This document shows positions 5,291 through 20,058 of a DNA stretch of 56,268 bases, piece by piece. How positions within the stretch are numbered: position 1 is the stretch's first letter; each line of letters opens with the position of its first letter. Where the stretch lies: contig VGUA01000001.1 in assembly GCA_016874535.1 (NCBI GenBank), positions 107,188 through 163,455 on the forward strand, given 5' to 3'. Position numbers and translations under genes: made by a program. The notes beneath the pieces are model-generated. The model worked only from the letters and a program-made list of their open reading frames with translations. It did no database searches and was not told where the DNA came from. The stretch is from Gammaproteobacteria bacterium. Its GTDB lineage: Bacteria; Pseudomonadota; Gammaproteobacteria; Ga0077536.

Positions 5291-5700
5291 CAGTATCCGT
5301 AGGTTGCGAGCAGGTCCCGCACCCGCCTGACGAAAATCGCGTGTTCGCACGCGTCCTCGCTTGGATATCTATGCTCGAGTATCTGCACGGGTTTGCCGCG
5401 CACCCCGGAAGCGATTCCGATGCGATAGTCCGTGTGGGGTGCCACGCAGATTCTCACGTATTTGCCTGCCATCGGCGCGCGCCTGAGCTTGTCGATAACA
5501 CGCGCCAGATCATCGCTGTGCTGGACGCCGCGGCGGCCCGCCTGACCGGGTTTACCGATAGGGTTGTCGCGATGCTCCGCGATGAGCCGATCCCGGGATG
5601 CCGGGTCGACAAGCAGCGGCAGAATGTGGGTGCGGGTGATGAAATCGTCAGTCGCGGAATGGCCGCGGTTGGCCTGGACACCGGTGAGCTTTCTGGCCAT
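5290..5700 (-). CDS. N,N-dimethylformamidase small (alpha) subunit-like protein
   Basis: LIAEHRDNPIGKP...HSDDLARVIDKLRRAPMAGKYVRICVAPHTDYRIG...CEHAIFVRRV. First gene of the minus-strand operon, with GGGGAG RBS. Confidence 0.78.
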   Translation of the reverse strand: MARKLTGVQANRGHSATDDFITRTHILPLLVDPASRDRLIAEHRDNPIGKPGQAGRRGVQHSDDLARVIDKLRRAPMAGKYVRICVAPHTDYRIGIASGVRGKPVQILEHRYPSEDACEHAIFVRRVRDLLATYGY

Positions 5701-5732
5701 GAACTCTCCCCCTTGGGCAATTACTCGCCAAG

Positions 5733-5744
5733 TTGGTATAACAA
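5733..5744. promoter_or_regulatory. Candidate GntR-family operator in divergent promoter
   Basis: TTGGTATAACAA is one mismatch from the palindrome TTGGTATACCAA and sits in the 85-bp divergent intergenic gap. Confidence 0.4.
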
Positions 5745-5785
5745 GTCCACCAATAGCGGGGAACAGCTATGAGCAGGCACAACCC

Positions 5786-7162
5786 ATGACCCCACACACC
5801 GCCCCCATCGTGCCCCGTCAATGGCAGGTCGACAGTCCCGGCGAGCTTGCCGACTTGTTTGCGCGCGAACGCATTGAGTTGGTGCACGCGGGGCTTTTCG
5901 ATACCGAAGGTGTGTTCCGGGAGAAACGGTTGCCGGCGAAGCTCGCGCTGCACTATGCGAAAGAGGGCTGGTCCTTCATCGATGCGCTGCCGTTCTGGGG
6001 GCCAAACGATGCGGTGCGTGCAGACCGGGCCTACCACAGCGAACCCTGCGCCATAGACTGTGCCAGTGTGCGGCCCTATCCGTTTGAAGCCAGCGCGGCG
6101 CTGCTGGTTGCGGACTACTGCGGCAACAGCGCCAATCTGTCGCCGCGCACGCTGCTCTCACGTCAGTTGGCGCGCGCGCAGGGAATGGGTTTCCAGGCAC
6201 TGGGGGCCTCGGAATTCGAATTCATCCTGCTGGCCGAAACACCCGCCACGGTGGCGGCGAAGGACTACCAGAGTCTGACCACTCACGCGCAGGAAAACCG
6301 CTGCTGGTCAGGCCTCTACCCGGCGACCGGGGCCGCCTTCCTGCGCGACTATGACCAATGCCTGCGCAGCGGCGACATCCCGCTGCACCACCTCTGTGCG
6401 GAATTGGGCCCGGGTTGTCTGGAAGCGTCCTTGCCGGTGCGGCCACTGCTCACCGCCGCCGACGATGCGGCACTGTTCAAACTCCACACCAAGGCCTTTG
6501 CGATCGAGCGTGGTCACATCGCCTCCTTCATGGCCCAGCTGTCTGATCAGCATCCCGGGCTTGGGGGTCACCCGATCCTTTCGCTACGCAGCACGGCGGA
6601 TGGCACGGCGAGCTTCCACGATGCCGCCGACCCGCTCGGGATTTCCGCGACCTGTCGCCAGTTCATCGCAGGGGTGCTGCATGCATTGCCCGACCTGATG
6701 CCCATGTTCGCCGGGACCGTCAACGCCTACCGGCGCTACGTTCCGGGCAATTGGGCGCCGCGCACCGCAACCTGGGGCATCGACAACTACACCTGCGCCA
6801 TCCGTGTTGTCGCGGGCGCGCCGGACGATTGCCGTATCGAATTTCGCCTGCCGGGGGCGGACACCAACGCCCATCTGGCGTTCGCCATGTTGCTTGGGGC
6901 CGGACTCGACGGCATCGAGCGTCGCCTGGAGGCTCCGCCAGCCACCACAACCCTCGGGCGCGAGCTCGTGCACCCCGGGATCGGTCCGCTGCCGCGCACC
7001 CTCCTGGAAGCTGCGGAGCGCATGGCCGCGAGCCCGCTGGCGCGGCGTTTTTTCGGTGATGCCTTCGTCGACCACTACACGGCGTCCTGCATCCAGGAGG
7101 ATCACCTCATGCGTCGCCACGTGCCGGCGTTCGAGCGGGCACGGTACCTGCATCACGTTTGA
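5786..7162 (+). CDS. Glutamine synthetase-like protein (gamma-glutamyl-amine ligase family)
   Basis: ASEFEF, ELGPGCLE, GLGGHPILS, NAYRRYVPGNWAP, WGIDNYTCAIRV and RIEFRLPGADTNAHLA motifs. Start trimmed to ATG 5786. Confidence 0.85.
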   Translation: MTPHTAPIVPRQWQVDSPGELADLFARERIELVHAGLFDTEGVFREKRLPAKLALHYAKEGWSFIDALPFWGPNDAVRADRAYHSEPCAIDCASVRPYPFEASAALLVADYCGNSANLSPRTLLSRQLARAQGMGFQALGASEFEFILLAETPATVAAKDYQSLTTHAQENRCWSGLYPATGAAFLRDYDQCLRSGDIPLHHLCAELGPGCLEASLPVRPLLTAADDAALFKLHTKAFAIERGHIASFMAQLSDQHPGLGGHPILSLRSTADGTASFHDAADPLGISATCRQFIAGVLHALPDLMPMFAGTVNAYRRYVPGNWAPRTATWGIDNYTCAIRVVAGAPDDCRIEFRLPGADTNAHLAFAMLLGAGLDGIERRLEAPPATTTLGRELVHPGIGPLPRTLLEAAERMAASPLARRFFGDAFVDHYTASCIQEDHLMRRHVPAFERARYLHHV

Positions 7163-7209
7163 TTTGGTTTGCCCGTTCCAACCACGCTCAAACGCCCGGA
7201 GGCCCCCAG

Positions 7210-8676
7210 ATGACAGCCTTGGAAACCTATGTGAAGGACGCCCAACGGATGGAGGGCGTGAAGAAAGTACGCGCGCTCATCAATTCGCTCGGTATCGAAT
7301 ACATCTACTACCAGTTCGTGTCGGTGACCGGTCGCATCGTCGGCAAGGGAGCACCGGCCGACCACTGGGAACGGCTGGCGACCAAGGGCTTCCAGCTCGT
7401 TTACGGCTCCACGGCCAACCTTTTCATCAGTCGCAAGGGTCGCTACCTGGGCTACGGGCCCGAGGCCAGCGAACTGGTGGGTATAGCCGACCCCGAGACG
7501 TTCGTGCAGTTGCCTTGGGAGCCGCGCGTCGCGCGCGTGTTCTGCACACTGTTCCGCAACCGCGAGGAGCCTGTCTACCCGGGTGGTTTCCTCACGTCCG
7601 ACTGTCGCGGCAACCTGAAACGTATGCACGCCGCGTTCGAAAAGAAGCATGGCCTGCGCCTGCGGCTGGGCACCGAGCCAGAAATGATGTGGCTGAAGAA
7701 GGGCCCGGACGGCAAACCGGACGGTGGCGTGACCCGCCCGTACTGTTACCACATCGATCAGTTCGAGGAGCTGCGCCCGCTGACTCTCAAGGTCAACGAG
7801 TACTGCCGCAAGATGGGACTCGACATGATTCAGGGCGACCACGAGGATGCGCCCGGCCAGCTCGAACTCAATTGGGCTTTCGATGATGTGCTGCGCACCT
7901 CGGATCGCCTCACCACCTATCGCCAGATCTGCGCGCAGGTGGCCCGCGAATTCAATGTCATCGCCTGCTTCATGACCAAGCCGTTCATGCGCCTGTCGGC
8001 CAACGGCTGCCATCACAATTTTTCGCTGTGGAAGGGTGGCAAGGATGTGGTGAACCACTTCGGTGGCCTGTCCAAACACGGGATGTCGGATGTCTACACC
8101 TACGTGACAGGGGGGCAGAACAAATTTGATCCGGAGGGAGACGATCCGCGCATGCCGGGCCAAATCGGGGTGCGGGCTGCTGGCGGCATCGTGCGTCACC
8201 TGCCGGCCCTCACAGCACTCGGTGCCTCGACAGTCAACTCCTATCGACGCCTGCTCGATCAGGGATATTGGGCGCCGGTCTACAACAATTGGGGTTACCA
8301 GAACCGCACCTGTGCGTTGCGCGTTTCAGCGCCGGGCCGCTTCGAATATCGCGCGGTCGACTCGATGGTCAATCCTTACCTGCTGAACTCCGCACTGCTG
8401 GCGGTGATGGATGAGGGGATCTCGAAAAAGCTCGACCCTGGTCCGCTGGAGCAGCGCAACATCTACGAGCTCGAGCTCGCCGGCAAGAAAGTGGTGAAGC
8501 TGCCGTCGAACCTCGGTGCCGCGCTCGATGCGATGGAGGCTGACTCCCTTGTGCGCAGTGCGCTGCCCGGCGAGATGTGGGATGTCTTCATCGACTACAA
8601 GCGCGACGAGTGGGACAAATTCATGGCCACAGTCACGCAATGGGACCACGATACCTACATGGACTGTCTGCCCTGA
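7210..8676 (+). CDS. Glutamine synthetase-like ligase (GmaS/GlnT-related)
   Basis: GTEPEMMWL, DHEDAPGQLELN, ANGCHHNFSLW, NSYRRL and NRTCALRVSAPGRFEYRAVDSMVNPYL motifs. GGAGG RBS before ATG 7210. Confidence 0.85.
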   Translation: MTALETYVKDAQRMEGVKKVRALINSLGIEYIYYQFVSVTGRIVGKGAPADHWERLATKGFQLVYGSTANLFISRKGRYLGYGPEASELVGIADPETFVQLPWEPRVARVFCTLFRNREEPVYPGGFLTSDCRGNLKRMHAAFEKKHGLRLRLGTEPEMMWLKKGPDGKPDGGVTRPYCYHIDQFEELRPLTLKVNEYCRKMGLDMIQGDHEDAPGQLELNWAFDDVLRTSDRLTTYRQICAQVAREFNVIACFMTKPFMRLSANGCHHNFSLWKGGKDVVNHFGGLSKHGMSDVYTYVTGGQNKFDPEGDDPRMPGQIGVRAAGGIVRHLPALTALGASTVNSYRRLLDQGYWAPVYNNWGYQNRTCALRVSAPGRFEYRAVDSMVNPYLLNSALLAVMDEGISKKLDPGPLEQRNIYELELAGKKVVKLPSNLGAALDAMEADSLVRSALPGEMWDVFIDYKRDEWDKFMATVTQWDHDTYMDCLP

Positions 8677-11604: not shown

Positions 11605-11671
11605 CAGGCTTGCTCCTGCGAACTGGCAGTGGTTTTGGTCGAGTGAAGTAGCGGCCTCGCTGCGATTTGCG

Positions 11672-11700
11672 TTGGCGACCCCCGTTCCCAGCCATATACT
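11672..11700 (+). promoter_or_regulatory. Candidate sigma70 promoter for the TdnQ-like gene
   Basis: TTGGCG-N17-TATACT, 32 bp upstream of ATG 11733. Confidence 0.4.
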
Positions 11701-11732
11701 CAACTGGCCCATCCAAACGCAAGGGGACGGTC

Positions 11733-13208
11733 ATGAGCTCGATTCAGGACGGCAGCGTTGGTCAGGTCGATTTCATCACCCGCCATGGGCTCTACTCCGA
11801 TGAGCAACGCGAGGCCATTTCCCGCCTCAAGGCCGAGATCGAGCGTCTCGGGCTGCGCACCATCCGCATCGCCTGGTGCGATCAGCACGGACTGGTGCGC
11901 GGCAAGCATGTGATGGCGCACGACTTCCTGCTGGCACTGCGCAACGGCATCGACTTCCAGACCGCCACGCTCTTCATGGACACCACCAACAATCTGGCCG
12001 TACCGATGTTTGCAAAACAGGGCGGTGGAATCGGTGTCGCTTCGCTCTGCGGTGGGCCGGACGCCATCCTTGTGCCGGATCCGCTCACCTTTCAGGTGCT
12101 GCCCTGGGCGAAGAGCACCGGTTGGATACTGTCAGAGATGTATCTTAACAGCGGCGAGCCCATGCCCTTCGACACGCGCGCGCTTTTCAAGCGTCTGCTT
12201 GCGCAGAACCGCGCCAAAGGCTACGACTGGATTGGCGGTCTCGAGGTAGAGTTCTACATCTGCAAGCTCGAGGATCGCATGCTGCAGCCCGAGCAATCAG
12301 GCTGGCCGCCGGATCCACCGAAAGTCTCGGCGATTGCCCATGGCTTCCAGTACCTCACCGAAGAGCGGCAGGACGAAATCGATCCCATCCTGCAGATGCT
12401 GCACGACAACCTCTCACAGCTTGGCCTGCCGCTGCGCACGATGGAGGACGAATGGGGTCCGGGCCAGTGCGAGTTCACTTTTGATCCCACGCGAGGGGTC
12501 ACCAGCGCAGACCAGATGGTGCTGTTTCGCACGGCCACCAAACAGTTGTGCCGTCGGCACGGCTATCACGCCACCTTCATGACCCGTCCGGGTCTGCCCA
12601 ATTTCTTCTCCAGCGGCTGGCATTTGCATCAGTCGCTGTGCGATGTGAACAGCGGCGCCAACCTCTTTGCCAACATGGGCGACAGTGATGAGGTGCTCTC
12701 GCCGCTTGGCCGGCATTTTGTGGGCGGCCTGCTGGCGCACGCGGCGCCGGGTTGTGTGTTCTCGACACCCACCATCAACGGCTACAAGCGTTATCGCCCC
12801 AATTCCTTCGCCCCGGATCGCATCACCTGGGCCAGTGAAAATCGTGCGGCGATGATTCGCGTGCTTGGTGGGCCCGGCGATCGTGCTTCGCATATCGAGA
12901 ATCGCGCCGGCGAACCCTGCGCCAATCCCTATCTCTACATGGGCTCGCAGCTGGTGGCCGGCATGGACGGCGTGGCGCGCAAGCTCGACCCCGGCCCGCT
13001 GGAAGAAACGCCCTACGAATCGGCCAACGCCAAGCTGCCGCGCAGTCTCATGGAAGCCACTGCCGCGCTACGCGAGAGCAAGGTGTTTCGCGAGGGCTTT
13101 GGCGATGCCTTCGTTGACTACATGTTGTTGTTGAAGCAGAGCGAGATCGATCGCTTCCTGCAGCATGTGACCGACTGGGAGCATCGCGAATATTTTGAAA
13201 TGTTCTAG
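11733..13208 (+). CDS. Glutamine synthetase-like ligase of the TdnQ/AtdA1 (gamma-glutamylanilide synthetase) type
   Basis: DFITRHGLYSDEQREA...IRIAWCDQHGLVRGK, VPDPLTFQVLPWAKSTGW, EDEWGPGQCEFTFD, SGWHLHQSL and IENRAGEPCANPYLY match the recalled AtdA1/TdnQ layout. Confidence 0.85.
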   Translation: MSSIQDGSVGQVDFITRHGLYSDEQREAISRLKAEIERLGLRTIRIAWCDQHGLVRGKHVMAHDFLLALRNGIDFQTATLFMDTTNNLAVPMFAKQGGGIGVASLCGGPDAILVPDPLTFQVLPWAKSTGWILSEMYLNSGEPMPFDTRALFKRLLAQNRAKGYDWIGGLEVEFYICKLEDRMLQPEQSGWPPDPPKVSAIAHGFQYLTEERQDEIDPILQMLHDNLSQLGLPLRTMEDEWGPGQCEFTFDPTRGVTSADQMVLFRTATKQLCRRHGYHATFMTRPGLPNFFSSGWHLHQSLCDVNSGANLFANMGDSDEVLSPLGRHFVGGLLAHAAPGCVFSTPTINGYKRYRPNSFAPDRITWASENRAAMIRVLGGPGDRASHIENRAGEPCANPYLYMGSQLVAGMDGVARKLDPGPLEETPYESANAKLPRSLMEATAALRESKVFREGFGDAFVDYMLLLKQSEIDRFLQHVTDWEHREYFEMF

Positions 13209-13235: not shown

Positions 13236-13745
13236 ATGAGCAATTGGCGAGGCAATAAATTCGGTGGTCTGTCGCCGAGTGAATTGGATGAATTTCTCCA
13301 AGGTCCGTGGCTGGCGCGACTCGCCTGCCTCAAGCCCGACGGTTGGCCGTATGTGGTGCCGGTGTGGTACCACTGGGACGGTGCGGCCTTCTGGGTGGTT
13401 GGACGCGCGCGATCCGAGTGGTGTCTTTACATGGCGAAGGACGCGCGGGTCTCGCTGGTGGTGGATGAACCGACACCCCCCATCCGCAAGGTCATCTGCG
13501 AGGGGCTCGCGGAGGTGGTGGAGGAATCCGTCGGACCTTATCTGCCGTCCGGCGAGAAATCCTTGTGGAACAAGCTGGGTGAAGAACACACCGGCCCGCG
13601 CTATCTCGGTGAGCGCGCGCAGGAATATCGCGGATCAGTGAACGTGGAACCCTGCTGGACCTTCCGCATCGTGCCGCAGAAGCTGACCACCTGGCAGGGC
13701 TTCGGCTGGCACACCCGCTACAAGCACCCCGAACTCCACCCCTAA
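13236..13745 (+). CDS. Pyridoxamine 5'-phosphate oxidase-like (split-barrel flavin-binding) protein
   Basis: LSPSELDEFL...ARLACLKPDGWPYVVPVWY...DARVSLVVD. GGAGG RBS. Confidence 0.8.
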   Translation: MSNWRGNKFGGLSPSELDEFLQGPWLARLACLKPDGWPYVVPVWYHWDGAAFWVVGRARSEWCLYMAKDARVSLVVDEPTPPIRKVICEGLAEVVEESVGPYLPSGEKSLWNKLGEEHTGPRYLGERAQEYRGSVNVEPCWTFRIVPQKLTTWQGFGWHTRYKHPELHP

Positions 13746-13830
13746 CCGGAAATTAGTGACAGTTACCCTATTTCCCGTAATTGGTGACAGTTACCTGATT
13801 AACGGAAATAGGGTTACTGTCACCAATTCT
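13746..13830. repeat. Composite cluster of three hairpin (REP-like) units, orientation F-F-R
   Basis: GGAAATTAGTGACAGTTACCCTATTTCC (13748-13775), AATTGGTGACAGTTACCTGATT (13779-13800) and GGAAATAGGGTTACTGTCACCAATT (13804-13828). Confidence 0.92.
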
Positions 13831-13858
13831 TGCACCTATTCCCCGGGGGAGTGCCGGA

Positions 13859-15088: not shown

Positions 15089-15486
15089 GCAAAGCACGCG
15101 AGGACGAACAGCTGACAGTGTTGTATGACGGGGCCTGTCCCTTGTGCCGCCGGGAGATCTTGCATGTGAAAAACCTGGCGCAGCACCGGCCCGAGAGTGG
15201 GCTCTGCTTTCTTGATCTGAGTAGGATGGATGCAGAGCCGTTGCTGCCTTCAACAGAGCGCAGCATGCTGCTCGCGCGCTTCCACGTGCAGCGCCCGGAC
15301 GGGTCGAAAATCTCCGGCGCTGCGGCCTTTGTTGCGATGTGGCGGCGACTGCCCGGCTGGCGCTGGTTGGCGAAACTGTCCGATCTCCCGGGCATGCTGG
15401 TGCTGATGGAATGGGTCTACCGAGCATTCCTGCGGGTGCGTCCAGCATTGCAGGCCATCGCTCGTCGGCTGGACAAGTCCAAGTAG
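15085..15486 (+). CDS. DUF393 / DCC-family thiol-disulfide oxidoreductase
   Basis: TVLYDGACPLCRREI motif. GTGA overlap with the photolyase stop. Confidence 0.85.
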   Translation: MSKAREDEQLTVLYDGACPLCRREILHVKNLAQHRPESGLCFLDLSRMDAEPLLPSTERSMLLARFHVQRPDGSKISGAAAFVAMWRRLPGWRWLAKLSDLPGMLVLMEWVYRAFLRVRPALQAIARRLDKSK

Positions 15487-15584
15487 AAATGAGTGACGGG
15501 AAATGGGTGACAGTTACCCTATTTCCGTTAATTAGGTAACTGTCACCCATTACGGGAAATAGGGTAACTGCCACCCATTTCCGG
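15486..15584. repeat. Half-unit plus composite cluster of three REP-like units (F-R-R); inverted copy of 13746-13828
   Basis: GAAATGAGTGAC half-site (15486-15497), then units at 15499-15526, 15530-15551 and 15555-15582. The reverse complement of 15502-15584 matches 13746-13828 at 76/83 nt without gaps (manual count). Confidence 0.92.
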
Positions 15585-15611
15585 TACCGATAGTTTTGGG
15601 AGGGGCGCGTC

Positions 15612-16154
15612 ATGATTCGGAGCCTTTTGGCATTGTCACTGACGGCGTGGGCCGCGTTTGCTGCGGCGGAGTCTATCGACGATCTGCGCGCCCGTGCCGA
15701 GCAGGGCAGCAGCTACGCACAAGTGCTCATGGGCGTGAAGTATCACAAGGGCGATGGCGTGCCGCAGGATATGGCAGAGGCAGCGCGCTGGTCTCGGATG
15801 GCGGCGGAGCAGGGTGATTCCCGCGGGCAGTACAACCTGGGCGCCATGTACGATTCCGGCGATGGCGTCTCCCAAGACTTTGCCGAGGCCGCCGCATGGT
15901 ACCGAAAAGCGGCTGAGCAGGGAGATTCACGCGGACAATACAGTCTTGGCGACATGTACCAGCTTGGCCAAGGTGTGGATCAGAGCGATGTCGAAGCGTA
16001 TCGCTGGTTCAGCCTCGCCGCAGTGAGCGGAAACGATGACGCCATCCCCGCGATGCAACGTCTGGCACCGCAGATGACTGCTGAAGAAATCGCTGAAGCC
16101 GAGCGCCTGGCACAGGCATGGCAGCCGTTGAGGCGCGACCAAAAAAATCGGTGA
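15612..16154 (+). CDS. Secreted Sel1-repeat (TPR-like) protein
   Basis: Signal peptide MIRSLLALSLTAWAAFAAA and repeated AAEQGDSRGQYxLGxMY units. GGAGG RBS. Confidence 0.9.
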   Translation: MIRSLLALSLTAWAAFAAAESIDDLRARAEQGSSYAQVLMGVKYHKGDGVPQDMAEAARWSRMAAEQGDSRGQYNLGAMYDSGDGVSQDFAEAAAWYRKAAEQGDSRGQYSLGDMYQLGQGVDQSDVEAYRWFSLAAVSGNDDAIPAMQRLAPQMTAEEIAEAERLAQAWQPLRRDQKNR

Positions 16155-16182
16155 CAAAAATCGGTGACAGTTACCCTATTTC
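16143..16182 (+). repeat. REP-like unit preceded by a tandem half-site duplication
   Basis: AAAAATCGGTGAC AAAAATCGGTGAC AGTTACCCTATTTC. The half-site supplies the TGA stop of the Sel1 gene. Confidence 0.9.
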
Positions 16183-16207
16183 AGGCCGGCAGCCTTGGGG
16201 CCGAGAA

Positions 16208-17005
16208 ATGAACAAAAGCAGTTCGTCTGGAGAACAACGAGTTCGGATTCAAGGGCCAGACCACGACACTTCTCTGGTCTTTGATGTACGCGGTTGCGGG
16301 CGCGCTGCGCTCTATGTACATGGATGGAGCTGCAGCCGGACCGACATTGCCGCCGTTGCTGACCTGTTGGCTCCATCAAATCGGGTATACGCAGTCGACC
16401 TGCCACACCATGGGGCGTCGAGCAGCACAATTTCAAAGTGGACCATGGCAGGTCTCGGCGAGGTAGTGGCAGCGGTGGTGCGCCGACTCGGTCTTCGAGA
16501 TGTTGCTCTCATAGGGCATTCCATGGGCGCCGCTGTTGTGGTCGAGGCGGCGGCGTTGCTCGGAAGCAACGTGCGGCGAGTGATTGCCCTCGACGGCCTC
16601 AGCTATCTCAATGTCTACCCGCGTCAGGACGAAGCTTCTGTCGATGGGTTTGTCTCGCCGTTCGTGGCCAATTTCCGGGAAGCGATAAATCACTTCGTGA
16701 ACATGGCGATGCCAGGTTCGGACGAGACACTCAAACGGCACGTGGCGACGGTCATGAAGAGTGGGCCGTCCCAACATCGGGTGCCGATGCTCGCCGAGCT
16801 CCTGCGCTGGGATATGGATTCAGCGCTCGATCGACTCGTCGCGCAGATCAGCGTGCTGGCGGCGCGTCAGTTCCTTTCTGCCGAACTGGAGATCCGCTAC
16901 GGAAAACGGTTCGAGATCATTCCCACCGACCTCGGCGGCCATTTCTTTTTCATGGAGCAGCCGAGTGCAAGTGCGGAGATGCTCGAGTCGCTCCTGCGCC
17001 GATGA
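16208..17005 (+). CDS. Alpha/beta fold hydrolase
   Basis: YVHGW, AVDLPHHG, GHSMG nucleophile motif and GHFFFMEQP. Confidence 0.88.
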   Translation: MNKSSSSGEQRVRIQGPDHDTSLVFDVRGCGRAALYVHGWSCSRTDIAAVADLLAPSNRVYAVDLPHHGASSSTISKWTMAGLGEVVAAVVRRLGLRDVALIGHSMGAAVVVEAAALLGSNVRRVIALDGLSYLNVYPRQDEASVDGFVSPFVANFREAINHFVNMAMPGSDETLKRHVATVMKSGPSQHRVPMLAELLRWDMDSALDRLVAQISVLAARQFLSAELEIRYGKRFEIIPTDLGGHFFFMEQPSASAEMLESLLRR

Positions 17006-17073
17006 CATGGCGAACGGGTCCAGACTCACCACCCGGATCTCGTGAACCGTTGCCACCGACGACTCCGGGATCT

Positions 17074-17140
17074 GTGACTATTATCTGATTATCGGAAATA
17101 GGGTAACTGTCACCAATTTCAGGTGTCACCAATTTCAGGT
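17074..17140 (-). repeat. Degenerate short unit plus reverse REP-like unit with tandem half-site duplication
   Basis: Minus strand reads ACCTGAAATTGGTGAC ACCTGAAATTGGTGAC AGTTACCCTATTTCC GATAATCAGATAATAGTCAC. The half-site contains the TGA of 17135-18451. Confidence 0.88.
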
Positions 17141-18451
17141 GGCGAGGCAGTAGGCTGTGAGACGGTGGAACATCTGCAGCACGGAAAGCCAGCAGATGAG
17201 TTCGACGATGGCCTGCGGAGAGATGGCGGACTGTCGACAGCGCTCCACCACATCCGGAGTGATGCGGGCAGGCGTGGGCGCGGCGGCCCGCGCCAGATGC
17301 AATAGGGCGATCGCTGTATCGGTCATCTCCTCCACTGTGATGTCCGCTCCCGCGGCGAAGCTTCTCGCCGATGCAAGCTGCGTCTCGGAAACGCCGTGAT
17401 GAAGAGCCAGCGCCGCCATGTCTTTCGCAAGCGCTGCATTGCCGACAACTTCGGCGAAAATCGTACCGGCCAGAATCTTCTCGCCCACAGGCATCACGCT
17501 GAGTGCGGGATCCAGATTCAGGTTGAGCACCGCGGCGATAGCGCGCACGCAACGCTGGTTGACCAGGCGCCCGAGCACCGGAAAATCATGTCCGGTCTGC
17601 TGCTTGAGATAACGACCCACTTCCGGCCAACGCGATGGCACACGGCGCTGCCAGCGCACGTCCAGCAGAAGGGCGCTGGGCAGGAACCGCAGGATGCGGG
17701 CCTTGCTGACCAAGTTGTCTGCGCCGGGCGGCGGCGTGGTCTTGTCGATGGCAAGGCCCCAGCCCGCACGTCCCGGAGACCATTCGGATCCGAGGGTTGT
17801 CGTCACCTCGGCAACGGTACTCGTCTCCAGCTCCACGCCAGTGGCGTCCATGAATTTGTTCAAGAAGCCCATTGCCACTGCGCCCATGGCAATCCACTCG
17901 GCCTGTGCGCGAGGAAAGTGCGCTTCGAGCGCCGCTCGGTGCTCGGGCGTCAACTCACAGGGCACGCGACCCAGCGCAGTGGCTACCGCTACCACTGCCG
18001 CCTCCGGGGGTGATAGGGCACCTGGCCCGCGCAGAGCGGCCGCAATCGTTTCTGGCGTGGCGCCCCGGCGGAGCGCAAAGGAGCAGGTGTGGGCGGTGCA
18101 GTAGGGACAATCCGCCGCACGACTTGCCATCAGCATGGAAAGCCCAACCTGCGCCTTGGGCGCTCCCCCGATGCCGAACACCGCAGCCGGCAGGTTCATC
18201 AGGTTGGGCACCACAAGATTGTAGGTCCTGAAGGCTGGCGGCCAGATCTCGAGGTAGCGATCGCAATTGGGCACCACGCCAATCAGCGTTCGGACCAGCT
18301 CCATCAGGGCACCATAACGCCCATGGAGCACCGCCATCGGCACGACGTGCGGCAGGAGAAGCTCGGCCAGGCTGTTGGGTGCGGGGATGGCTGACCCGGT
18401 GGTGTCGCCGGAGCCCGCGGTGGATGATGAAAGCTGGGGGGAAGTTGTCAT
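17135..18451 (-). CDS. AhpD/carboxymuconolactone decarboxylase-like protein (two-domain, CxxC)
   Basis: MASRAADCPYCTAHTC motif, then LEAHFPRAQAEWIAMGAVAMGFLNKFMD and a second CMD-like repeat (QAIVELICWLSVLQMFHRL). Confidence 0.65.
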   Translation of the reverse strand: MTTSPQLSSSTAGSGDTTGSAIPAPNSLAELLLPHVVPMAVLHGRYGALMELVRTLIGVVPNCDRYLEIWPPAFRTYNLVVPNLMNLPAAVFGIGGAPKAQVGLSMLMASRAADCPYCTAHTCSFALRRGATPETIAAALRGPGALSPPEAAVVAVATALGRVPCELTPEHRAALEAHFPRAQAEWIAMGAVAMGFLNKFMDATGVELETSTVAEVTTTLGSEWSPGRAGWGLAIDKTTPPPGADNLVSKARILRFLPSALLLDVRWQRRVPSRWPEVGRYLKQQTGHDFPVLGRLVNQRCVRAIAAVLNLNLDPALSVMPVGEKILAGTIFAEVVGNAALAKDMAALALHHGVSETQLASARSFAAGADITVEEMTDTAIALLHLARAAAPTPARITPDVVERCRQSAISPQAIVELICWLSVLQMFHRLTAYCLAT

Positions 18452-18492
18452 GGCGAGCCCGCTTGGGAGATGGCGGTATCATGCCACGAGAA

Positions 18493-18587
18493 GAATTGGT
18501 GACAGTTACCCTATTTCATTCAAGATGAAACATGACGGTCAGCGGGGCTCCGGGGCGACGGAAATAGGGTAACTGTCACCCATTTCC
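18493..18587. repeat. Inverted pair of REP-like units with a ~42-bp spacer (REPIN-like)
   Basis: GAATTGGTGACAGTTACCCTATTTC (18493-18517) and GGAAATAGGGTAACTGTCACCCATTTCC (18560-18587). Confidence 0.92.
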
Positions 18588-18714
18588 AAAAAAATTGCGT
18601 TTCTTTGACAAAAAAATCACGGCGAACCACGATCCCTTGCGCCGGGGGCGTTCACGCTCTCGGCCAGCACCCACCAGGCACAACGCATCCCCCAACACGC
18701 GCAGTGAGGGTTCA

Positions 18715-20058
18715 GTGAAACGAATTCGTGACGGTCTGACCGATTGGCATCTTGAGTACTGCCGCGCGCTCGCCTTGCGGCTGCTCGGCCATGGGCCAAT
18801 CCGCGAGCCTGAGAAAGACACCTTCCACGTCAACCTCACCGACTTCCTGGCTGCGGAGGCTGGCGTGCGCAGTGCCGACATCGCGGGCGTCATCGACATC
18901 CTCGCCGTCACGCGCACGGAGTCGGGCATCAGCCATCACCGCAGCATCAACGATTATCCCAGGGAGCTGGCGCTCAATTATGGTTCGCTGGAGGAGTACC
19001 TGGCGGGTGGAGAATTCCAGGAATACGAGAGCTACGCCGCAGATCCGCTGATCGGCAATCGATGGGTGCAGAATGTGGAAGAAGCCATTCTCATGACCCT
19101 CGGGCACGAGCTCGCGCATCATGTGGTGGCGCTCCAGCGAAAGGGCAGAGATGTCAAACCCCATGGCCCCGAGTTCAAGCATTTCTATTCCCTGATACGT
19201 CGGTTCGCACTCAACCCGATGCTCGATGAGTTCGCCATGGACACCAAGCAGCGCGCCGCAGCGCGCTTCGAGACGCGGCTCATCAACAAAATCCATGCGC
19301 TGCAGAAGATGGCGACGGACGCCACCTCCAACGAGAACGAGGCGGAACGCGCGCTGGCCCAGCTGCAGGCACTGAAGAGCAAATATGGGCTCACGGATAC
19401 CGTCCTTTCAGACAGCACCAAGCCGCACGTCATCGAGCGGACAGTGCCCGTGGTGCGGCGGGAAGGCTACAAGGCGCTCAGCCACCTTTGTTGGGGCATT
19501 GCAAGATTCTGCGGCGTGGAAGCGGTGCTGCATCCAGGGCGACTGGTCAGCTGGCAGGAGATTGAACGCGGGATTCGCAAAGTGCTGTGGACGTATGACT
19601 ACGTCACCTATTTCGGCTCGACGTCCGATACCGAGATGGCCGTGTACCTCAGCGAGATGATCTTCCATTCGCTCTTTGACGAATCCGAGCGCTATCGCAC
19701 GACAGAGGCCTATCGCGAAGCATTGGCAGTCGGCCACAAAAGCCGGACCCTGGTCTTCTCCTTCCGGCGGGCCTTTGTTGCACGCATCAATCGGCGACTG
19801 GAAGAGAGCCGCAAGGCCGTGCGGGAGGAGTGGGTTGCCTCCCGCGCCGATGGACGCGAGCTCATGACCCGCAAGGACGCCACCCTGCAAGCCCTCTTCA
19901 AGCAGCGCTATCCCAGGCTGGGCGCGTTTCAGGGCGGATCATCATCCTCGACTACCATTGGTAGCGCAGACCGGGCAGGCAGATCAGCCGCAGACCGCGT
20001 GAATCTGAACCGTCCGGTGGGGCAGGCGAGGACGCTGGCGCTGGGGCATCGGCGGTAG
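18715..20058 (+). CDS. SprT-like HExxH metallopeptidase fused to a DUF2786-domain protein
   Basis: LGHELAHH...KPHGPEFK, then KIHALQKMATDATSNENEAERALAQLQALKSKYGL, YFGSTSDTEMAVYL and SFRRAFVARINRRL. GTG start after GAGGG. Confidence 0.75.
   Translation: MKRIRDGLTDWHLEYCRALALRLLGHGPIREPEKDTFHVNLTDFLAAEAGVRSADIAGVIDILAVTRTESGISHHRSINDYPRELALNYGSLEEYLAGGEFQEYESYAADPLIGNRWVQNVEEAILMTLGHELAHHVVALQRKGRDVKPHGPEFKHFYSLIRRFALNPMLDEFAMDTKQRAAARFETRLINKIHALQKMATDATSNENEAERALAQLQALKSKYGLTDTVLSDSTKPHVIERTVPVVRREGYKALSHLCWGIARFCGVEAVLHPGRLVSWQEIERGIRKVLWTYDYVTYFGSTSDTEMAVYLSEMIFHSLFDESERYRTTEAYREALAVGHKSRTLVFSFRRAFVARINRRLEESRKAVREEWVASRADGRELMTRKDATLQALFKQRYPRLGAFQGGSSSSTTIGSADRAGRSAADRVNLNRPVGQARTLALGHRR

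Follow-up and report, generated by a model that had tools for sequence, protein, structure and literature searches.

In Escherichia coli, the single-tyrosine HUH enzyme TnpA_REP, a tyrosine transposase associated with repetitive extragenic palindromes (REPs) and known as a RAYT, is flanked by its own repeats in an arrangement called a REPtron (Ton-Hoang et al. 2012, PMC3333891; Corneloup et al. 2021, PMC8266576). It cleaves single-stranded DNA (ssDNA) to give a 5'-phosphotyrosine, has a loose site specificity, and carries out strand transfer in vitro. Model 7B of the same study proposes that the enzyme cleaves, that the 3'-OH is extended, and that the newly made strand is then cut in turn and rejoined, leading to tandem additions of bacterial interspersed mosaic elements (BIMEs) (PMC3333891). 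In TIRtrons, TIRYT genes are surrounded by repeats with the terminal inverted repeat (TIR) consensus GGGGWSAS (Di Nocera, De Gregorio and Rocco 2013, PMC3733652). These accounts, and the comparisons below, draw on portions of the three articles. Here we describe a palindromic repeat family in the genome of a gammaproteobacterium from a lake (assembly GCA_016874535.1), centred on a stretch of 56,268 nt (contig VGUA01000001.1, positions 107,188 to 163,455; the window). Some of its units are preceded by a tandem copy of their own left arm that breaks off in the centre of the palindrome.

The repeat system itself is of a known kind: the family is a REP/TIR-type miniature palindromic element, part of a REPtron/TIRtron-type system. 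As in TIRtrons, a RAYT-like Y1 gene is flanked by short, partly self-complementary repeats without a GTAG tag, and the repeats are dispersed in the genome as singles, dimers and clusters that abut or overlap gene ends and provide stop codons, but the portion of that article used here describes neither arm duplications nor a cleavage site (PMC3733652). As in the E. coli REPtron, a putative single-tyrosine HUH enzyme is flanked by its own repeats (PMC3333891; PMC8266576), and the two cleavage sites of model 7B, one of them loose, match the one fixed and one variable boundary found here. The E. coli enzyme, however, requires a 5' GTAG tag and a bulged stem and cuts C|T beside an inverted REP or in the linker, whereas GTAG is absent here, the cut that we infer lies at the palindrome centre (C^A or G^A), and the added piece is half a unit, not a whole BIME. 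No description of half-unit arm duplications, or of a break at the palindrome centre, was found in the literature searched on RAYT/REP cleavage and tandem forms (supplements not covered).

The repeat family

The genome (3.08 Mb, 189 contigs, 63% G+C) contains 98 units, counted with at most one mismatch in a 12-nt core. Each is an imperfect palindrome of 27-29 nt centred on GTGAC-A-GTTAC, and the consensus of the 98 copies is cgGAAATTGGTGAC-A-GTTACCCTATTTCCg. Exact cores number 78, against none for the reversed control, and of 103 core hits, contig C1 has 30 and C11 has 17. The window has 10 matches to a 14-nt core, where 0.21 are expected from shuffled sequences, all of them within 13.7-18.6 kb. 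According to the position table of the 98 copies, neither a GTAG nor a CGTC tag is present at either end of the palindrome, the consensus ends being GGAAAT... and ...ATTTCC. The central octamer, GGTGACAG, matches the TIR consensus at 7 of 8 positions. The core motif of this family was not found in the literature searched (supplements not covered).

Half-repeats in the window

A first-pass annotation of this DNA had noted three half-repeats ending at the same base, each followed within 0-2 bp by a full unit, two of them as exact tandem duplications of 13 and 16 bp. Direct reading of the window gives the following arrangement:

15486-15497, plus strand: half-repeat 1, GAAATGAGTGAC, a left arm ending GTGAC, followed by GG and then a full unit
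15499-15526, plus strand: full unit after half-repeat 1, the first of a three-unit cluster
15527-15554 and 15555-15582, minus strand: two more units in inverted orientation (core matches)
16143-16155, plus strand: half-repeat 2, AAAAATCGGTGAC, first copy of an exact 13-bp tandem duplication
16156-16183, plus strand: single full unit, its left arm being the second AAAAATCGGTGAC copy
17125-17140, minus strand: half-repeat 3, ACCTGAAATTGGTGAC, first copy of an exact 16-bp tandem duplication
17094-17124, minus strand: full unit including the second ACCTGAAATTGGTGAC copy; a degenerate inverted unit is next on the minus strand

All three halves are thus where they had been placed, the spacing holds (GG at half-repeat 1, no spacer at 2 and 3), and the exact duplications are those of half-repeats 2 and 3. 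The second copy of AAAAATCGGTGAC (16156-16168) runs into AGTTACCCTATTTC, while on the minus strand ACCTGAAATTGGTGAC at 17140-17125 is followed by an exact second copy at 17124-17109 and then by AGTTACCCTATTTCC; both continuations start with AGTTACC. Half-repeat 1 copies the arm of the adjacent unit imperfectly, agreeing with it at 11 of 14 positions. The three-unit cluster from 15499 has a predicted fold of -31.7 kcal/mol (z -7.9).

The duplications are not artefacts of assembly, a concern raised in the annotation, as all three are reproduced in separate per-run Logan contigs. Twenty-four public sequencing runs contain the window stretch, and Logan contigs of four of them (X10, X11, X12 and X23), none flagged as a possible source, were aligned to the window. 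Contigs of X10, X11 and X12 run across all three sites without a single difference or gap (15300-15532/15711, 15360/15522-16295/16573 and 16267/16337/16664-17400), and X23, from another year and another study, covers the third site (17059-17211), likewise without differences. No insertion or deletion variants are listed at the three sites at the contig level, which probably reflects one population and at which rare alleles could escape.

Arm duplications across the family

The tally covers 207 distinct units, 98 belonging to this genome and 109 to loci in other genomes or on three metagenome contigs, with identical contexts removed. Every unit was tested for a tandem copy of its own left arm (score of at least 8) and for the mirror case with the right arm. 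The metagenome scan, for the pattern 'arm, gap, unit', yielded 3 contigs only, too few for a tally of their own, so these were pooled with the other loci. A genome-wide position-weight-matrix scan for isolated partial copies was discarded, since up to about 17 bits composition-shuffled sequences matched as often as the genome did; owing to this noise, the analysis is limited to the surroundings of full units and to tests for explicit tandem periods.

Left-arm duplications were found at 31 of the 207 units and a mirror right-arm duplication at 1. Thirty duplications reach the core, all directly upstream of the unit and on the same strand. Their right boundary lies after GTGAC (+4) in 19 cases, 11 of which could equally be placed at +5 because of the following A, and after GTG (+2) in 9; the remaining two are at +6 and +8, one each. 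Truncation is therefore not random: in 28 of 30 halves it falls on either of two sites in the palindrome centre, separated by 2 nt, and the shared break far exceeds what chance would give. GTGAC^A cannot, on the other hand, be the single cleavage site proposed in the annotation, since GTG^AC accounts for 9 of the 30. Both breaks fall inside the predicted ssDNA loop of the unit, GGT[GACAGTT]ACC. The left boundary is more variable and clusters at the 5' edge of the unit, lying at -8 in 12 cases, -9 in 7 and other positions from -7 to -13 in 11; -8 is where the conservation of the unit starts. The period of the duplications is 11-18 nt, 12 are exact, and junction microhomology is 0-2 nt, being 0 in several exact cases.

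Some individual sites depart from this pattern. The sole mirror case (L013:4850-4900) is a near-perfect palindrome whose right arm (GTTACCC...) is succeeded by another (GTCACCC...); this extra arm, read on the opposite strand, again ends in GTGAC. At L024:2320-2380, in genome G006, an exact tandem duplication of 21 nt inside a unit ends at +13/+14; it is outside the arm-duplication class, and indicates that other duplication boundaries exist at low frequency. Outside the window, a doublet at C1:104241-104321 has extra arms at both outer ends, with a GTG-type half at one end and, at the other, two successive 16-nt arms after a dissimilar third arm reaching GTGACAGT.

Local origin and copying of duplicated units

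Halves resemble the unit next to them. Over 10 variable positions, a half agrees with its own neighbour at 8.43 on average, a figure inflated by a selection threshold that favours similar pairs, and with other units at 5.26, a result reached in 0 of 10,000 permutations. Thirteen of the 30 halves match their neighbour at 10/10, and several of the arms are not found elsewhere in the data. Full units lying side by side, by comparison, agree at only 6.3/10 (34 pairs), so the halves are not leftovers of tandem full units that suffered deletions. Insertion of a foreign unit into the loop of a resident one was likewise rejected, as no trailing right arm follows any composite.

Halves are confined to positions beside units. 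Among 84 right-arm matches, 79 are in units, and the other 5 are two-mismatch matches in unrelated contexts. The 108 matches to a left-arm 11-mer comprise 69 in units, 11 halves directly upstream of one, 1 after a unit, and 27 isolated ones, about the number due to chance by our estimate, which was made without a shuffle control.

At the orthologous site upstream of the RAYT-like gene, G006 has a plain unit and G007 an exact 13-bp arm duplication. In the present genome (G000) the same site (L011:1300-1400, compared with L058 and L057) has an insert of 68 nt that starts after GTGAC and ends in GTGAC. A right arm, a spacer of 40 nt and a left arm make up the insert, which resembles a tiny cassette between two break sites. 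The 16-bp doubled composite of the window also follows an unrelated zinc-dependent alcohol dehydrogenase gene in another species, and a doubled 15-bp form beginning ACGG occurs at two loci; in both instances the flanks diverge at the first duplicated base. This means that a duplicated unit can be copied whole, and that the left boundary is the 5' end of the element. A DNA search of 40 relatives with the 15.0-17.4 kb segment gave repeat matches and weak gene matches only.

A RAYT-like transposase encoded on another contig

The partner enzyme of the repeat is a RAYT-like Y1/HUH transposase encoded on a different contig (C11:10564-11226, 221 aa). It is the only match above cut-off to Y1_Tnp (PF01797) in the genome, at 44.6 bits against a cut-off of 23. 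Its best match in the PDB is 4er8, E. coli TnpA_REP, a chain of 165 aa to which it is distantly similar (E 3.6e-4). HMMER aligns a histidine pair (HVH) and a conserved tyrosine region with that chain, and from this alignment we read the pair as a putative HUH motif and the tyrosine as the probable catalytic residue. Against the model NF047646 ('REP-associated tyrosine transposase') the protein reaches 69.7 bits, short of the cut-off of 80, which marks it as a distant member. Units of the same family flank the gene, two upstream and a doublet plus a further unit downstream.

The distribution of the enzyme follows that of the repeat. Among 41 genomes searched, an orthologue with 90% identity occurs only in G000, G006 and G007, which have 78, 34 and 39 exact cores respectively, the other 38 genomes having 0-2. 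Sister RAYT-like lineages, with 51-58% identity, are present in G019 (L062), G024 (L063) and G022 (L064), where they have their own flanking repeats with the core GGGGACAG or GGGGACAC; these sister repeat families match GGGGWSAS at 8 of 8 positions. The G019 family has 59 exact cores, nearly all in doublets at a fixed 35-nt offset.

Two smaller features concern the gene itself. Its own TGA stop in this genome lies within a half-like sequence, ...CCGTGAC (L011:2100-2270), 9 nt before a full unit; G007 has CGCTGAC there (L057), so that the arrangement is conserved between the two. At C15:37979-38152, 58 residues share 55% identity with the N-terminus of the RAYT-like protein and may come from a fragmentary second Y1 gene.

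Origin of the duplications

We favour, at about an even chance of being correct, the view that the arm duplications were left by strand-specific cleavage within the central motif and ensuing strand transfer, as in the published cleave-extend-cleave-rejoin model of RAYT amplification. The transposase would cut one strand within GGTG^AC^AG, mainly after GTGAC and less often after GTG, and would also cut at the 5' edge of the element. Limited synthesis from the upstream 3'-OH would follow, after which the new central 3'-OH would be joined to the old 5' end still bound to the enzyme. With the 5' edge cut first and the centre second, the product would be arm, arm and rest of the unit. The outcome would be one extra left arm, equivalent to a scheme of the model 7B type halting half-way through the unit. 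The duplicated unit might then itself be copied to new places, and overlaps with stop codons would be a by-product of a family that sits on the 3' ends of genes. Rolling-circle Rep and relaxase HUH enzymes make a strand-specific nick in the loop of a small hairpin, and a half-site 5' of the nick suffices for rejoining; the enzyme here differs from them in being of the Y1 transposase family PF01797, and there is no replicon. The proposal in the first-pass annotation that the halves are scars of a nick or strand transfer is in keeping with the break positions, the local tandem origin and the strand bias, while the enzymatic cut is something that we infer from them.

Several observations weigh against cleavage and strand transfer by the transposase, among them the inflated agreement score mentioned above. 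The link between the duplications and the enzyme consists of co-occurrence and analogy. There are two preferred break points and rare others, not one, and the left boundary follows no set sequence, the duplications starting with G in 12 cases, with A in 11, with C in 4 and with T in 3. A single unit as ssDNA folds weakly (z -1.7 to +1.1), and no reciprocal products were seen, there being no credible orphan right arm among the 84 right-arm matches. Nor are the 30 cases all independent: L034 and L042 are one locus with near-identical DNA, and the ACCTG form (window, L022) and the ACGG form (L042, L036/L037) may each trace to one event. In the G019 family, halves are few, with 1 clear case (ending GGGAC) and 2 doubtful ones among 44 units inspected. 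Finally, characterised RAYTs cut CT or CA dinucleotides beside the stem-loop, and the portions of the articles used here describe no cut within a loop (PMC3333891, PMC8266576).

The strand bias bears on two alternatives that dispense with the transposase. Replication slippage, in which a polymerase held up at the small hairpin, or falling off there, realigns and duplicates one arm without a site-specific enzyme, would be expected to give both arms of a palindrome equally, whereas 31 left arms stand against 1 right arm. It can draw on the other tandem duplications in the family (whole units with periods of 26-29 nt, and the 21-nt case ending at +13/+14), on the AT-rich left arm, which melts easily, and on the few junctions with 1-2 nt of microhomology; but microhomology never exceeds 2 nt and is nil in several exact cases, a hairpin in the template would presumably block synthesis at its foot rather than its centre, and an arm of 11-18 nt would probably have no hairpin of its own to stabilise the looped-out strand. 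Overall, slippage is rather unlikely. An attack by a host structure-specific nuclease (SbcCD-like or similar) on the extruded hairpin near its tip, with error-prone repair duplicating the arm, meets the same imbalance of 31 to 1, since the hairpins of both strands should be hit alike. Hairpin tips are known targets of such nucleases and the breaks do lie within the predicted loop, yet the palindromes that SbcCD-like enzymes are known to attack are much longer than 27 nt, single units fold weakly, and no orphan or deleted forms were found in the family, all of which makes this route improbable.

The other two alternatives give the halves a role of their own. If a three-arm architecture (arm, arm, opposite arm) were selected, for example for alternative hairpins or as an extra half-site for protein binding, it would be copied and would not be a scar; composites have been copied to new loci, and a half-like GTGAC/CTGAC is conserved 9 nt before the unit at the 3' end of the RAYT-like gene in two species. 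We consider this very improbable, as only 30 of 207 units have such an architecture, the RAYT-proximal unit is a composite in one of three species, the periods vary from 11 to 18 nt, and many composites have arms found nowhere else and so arose locally. The annotation had looked instead to integron cassettes, and the likeness is that small accessory genes have imperfect palindromes at their 3' ends, with stop codons inside the repeat. In such a system the units would be recombination sites with a crossover at GTGAC^A, and the half-sites scars of exchange. Units bracketing small accessory genes in islands (the C1 and C11 concentrations of core hits), the 68-nt segment upstream of the RAYT-like gene with its GTGAC ends, and the DCC1-like and CMD orthologues without the repeat in sister species could all be accommodated.

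The integron analogy does not hold, however, and of all the explanations we give the cassette system the slimmest chance. No recombinase was found among the open reading frames (ORFs) of the window. The genome has 8 matches to the tyrosine recombinase family PF00589, on contigs C19, C130, C34, C17, C131, C7 and C98, and none of these contigs has a clean unit (C34 has a single, chance-like core match with 2 mismatches); the enzyme associated with the repeat is Y1/HUH and RAYT-like. The units lack R/L box architecture and are spread genome-wide at 27-29 nt, in no single array by an intI gene. They read GTTACCC, where the core consensus of attC is GTTRRRY. Conservative exchange between GTGAC^ sites would be expected to restore whole units and not to make half-sites, and the halves are local duplications, not foreign. 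A dif/pdif-like Xer site also seems a poor fit, the palindrome reaching to a 1-nt centre without an asymmetric spacer.

Returning to cleavage and strand transfer by the transposase, a further claim can be made tentatively, with rather less than an even chance: this lineage may cut its own palindrome centre at GG(G/T)G^AC^AS, in a way unlike characterised RAYTs, and the 30 duplications would then be the first in-genome record of RAYT cleavage and strand transfer. RAYT activity has been seen only in vitro, and the authors concerned regard the mechanism of REP multiplication in the cell as unresolved (PMC3333891; PMC8266576). If they are enzyme footprints, the duplications point to a precise cleavage site, open to testing, in a branch of these enzymes that is uncharacterised, and they provide in-genome evidence for the proposed amplification chemistry, a rolling-circle-like spread of REPs. 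Should no enzyme be involved, they would still be an unusually clean example of micro-duplication with a strand bias at a small palindrome.

Stop codons and gene ends

The genes and further units around the half-repeats are as follows (gene assignments by Pfam):

13236-13745: PNPOx-like gene, its TAA stop (13743-13745) abutting the cluster at 13748
13748-13831: three-unit cluster (+,+,-) of the same repeat family, directly past the PNPOx-like TAA
15037-15486: DCC1-like/DUF393 gene, its TAG stop (15484-15486) overlapping half-repeat 1
15612-16154: Sel1 repeat protein gene, its TGA stop (16152-16154) inside half-repeat 2
ending at 17005: alpha/beta hydrolase gene
17135-18451, minus strand: CMD/AhpD-like gene, its TGA stop (17137-17135) inside half-repeat 3
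18491-18518 (plus) and 18560-18587 (minus): two units of the same repeat family, upstream of a SprT-like/DUF2786/DUF7168 gene

The coordinates bear out the observation in the annotation that each half overlaps the stop codon of the gene pointing into it, and that the PNPOx-like (PPOX) TAA abuts the first cluster. The overlap is real, but it is a generic property of the family. At 28 of the 98 genomic units, a same-strand ORF of at least 150 aa ends between -24 and +19, that is, in or just before the left arm, while only 5 units are entered from the other side, a strong bias in orientation; for 8 of the 28, the stop is the TGA inside GGTGAC. A special link between halves and stop codons was rejected, as duplicated units in this genome are not enriched (such an ORF ends at 4 of 18, against 23 of 80 plain units). 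The DCC1-like ORF, at 149 aa, is just under the threshold. A tandem duplication leaves the junction with the upstream gene, and its stop, as before, so that the protein is unaltered. That REP termini supply stop codons has been published (PMC3733652).

On a check proposed in the annotation, two orthologues of the cargo proteins differ at their C-termini. The CMD orthologue in G006 has no 3' repeat and ends ...TAYVLARG, whereas the protein here ends ...TAYCLAT with its TGA coming from the repeat, and the DCC1-like orthologue in G007, again without a repeat, is four residues longer. In annotating such genomes, it should be considered that gene ends and stop codons beside these repeats are repeat-derived, unlike those of the orthologues.

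Other genes of the window

The gene downstream of the last two units, at 18595-20058, has SprT-like, DUF2786 and DUF7168 domains. DNA matches to it of about 74% identity are present in G006 and G007, with units at the corresponding positions beside the homologue. On the other side of the repeats, three glutamine-synthetase-like paralogues occur within 8 kb (5564-8676 and 11667-13208). They lie beside genes for a PhyH dioxygenase, a class-I amidotransferase and a class-V aminotransferase, which suggests an accessory cluster for the utilisation of amines or amides.

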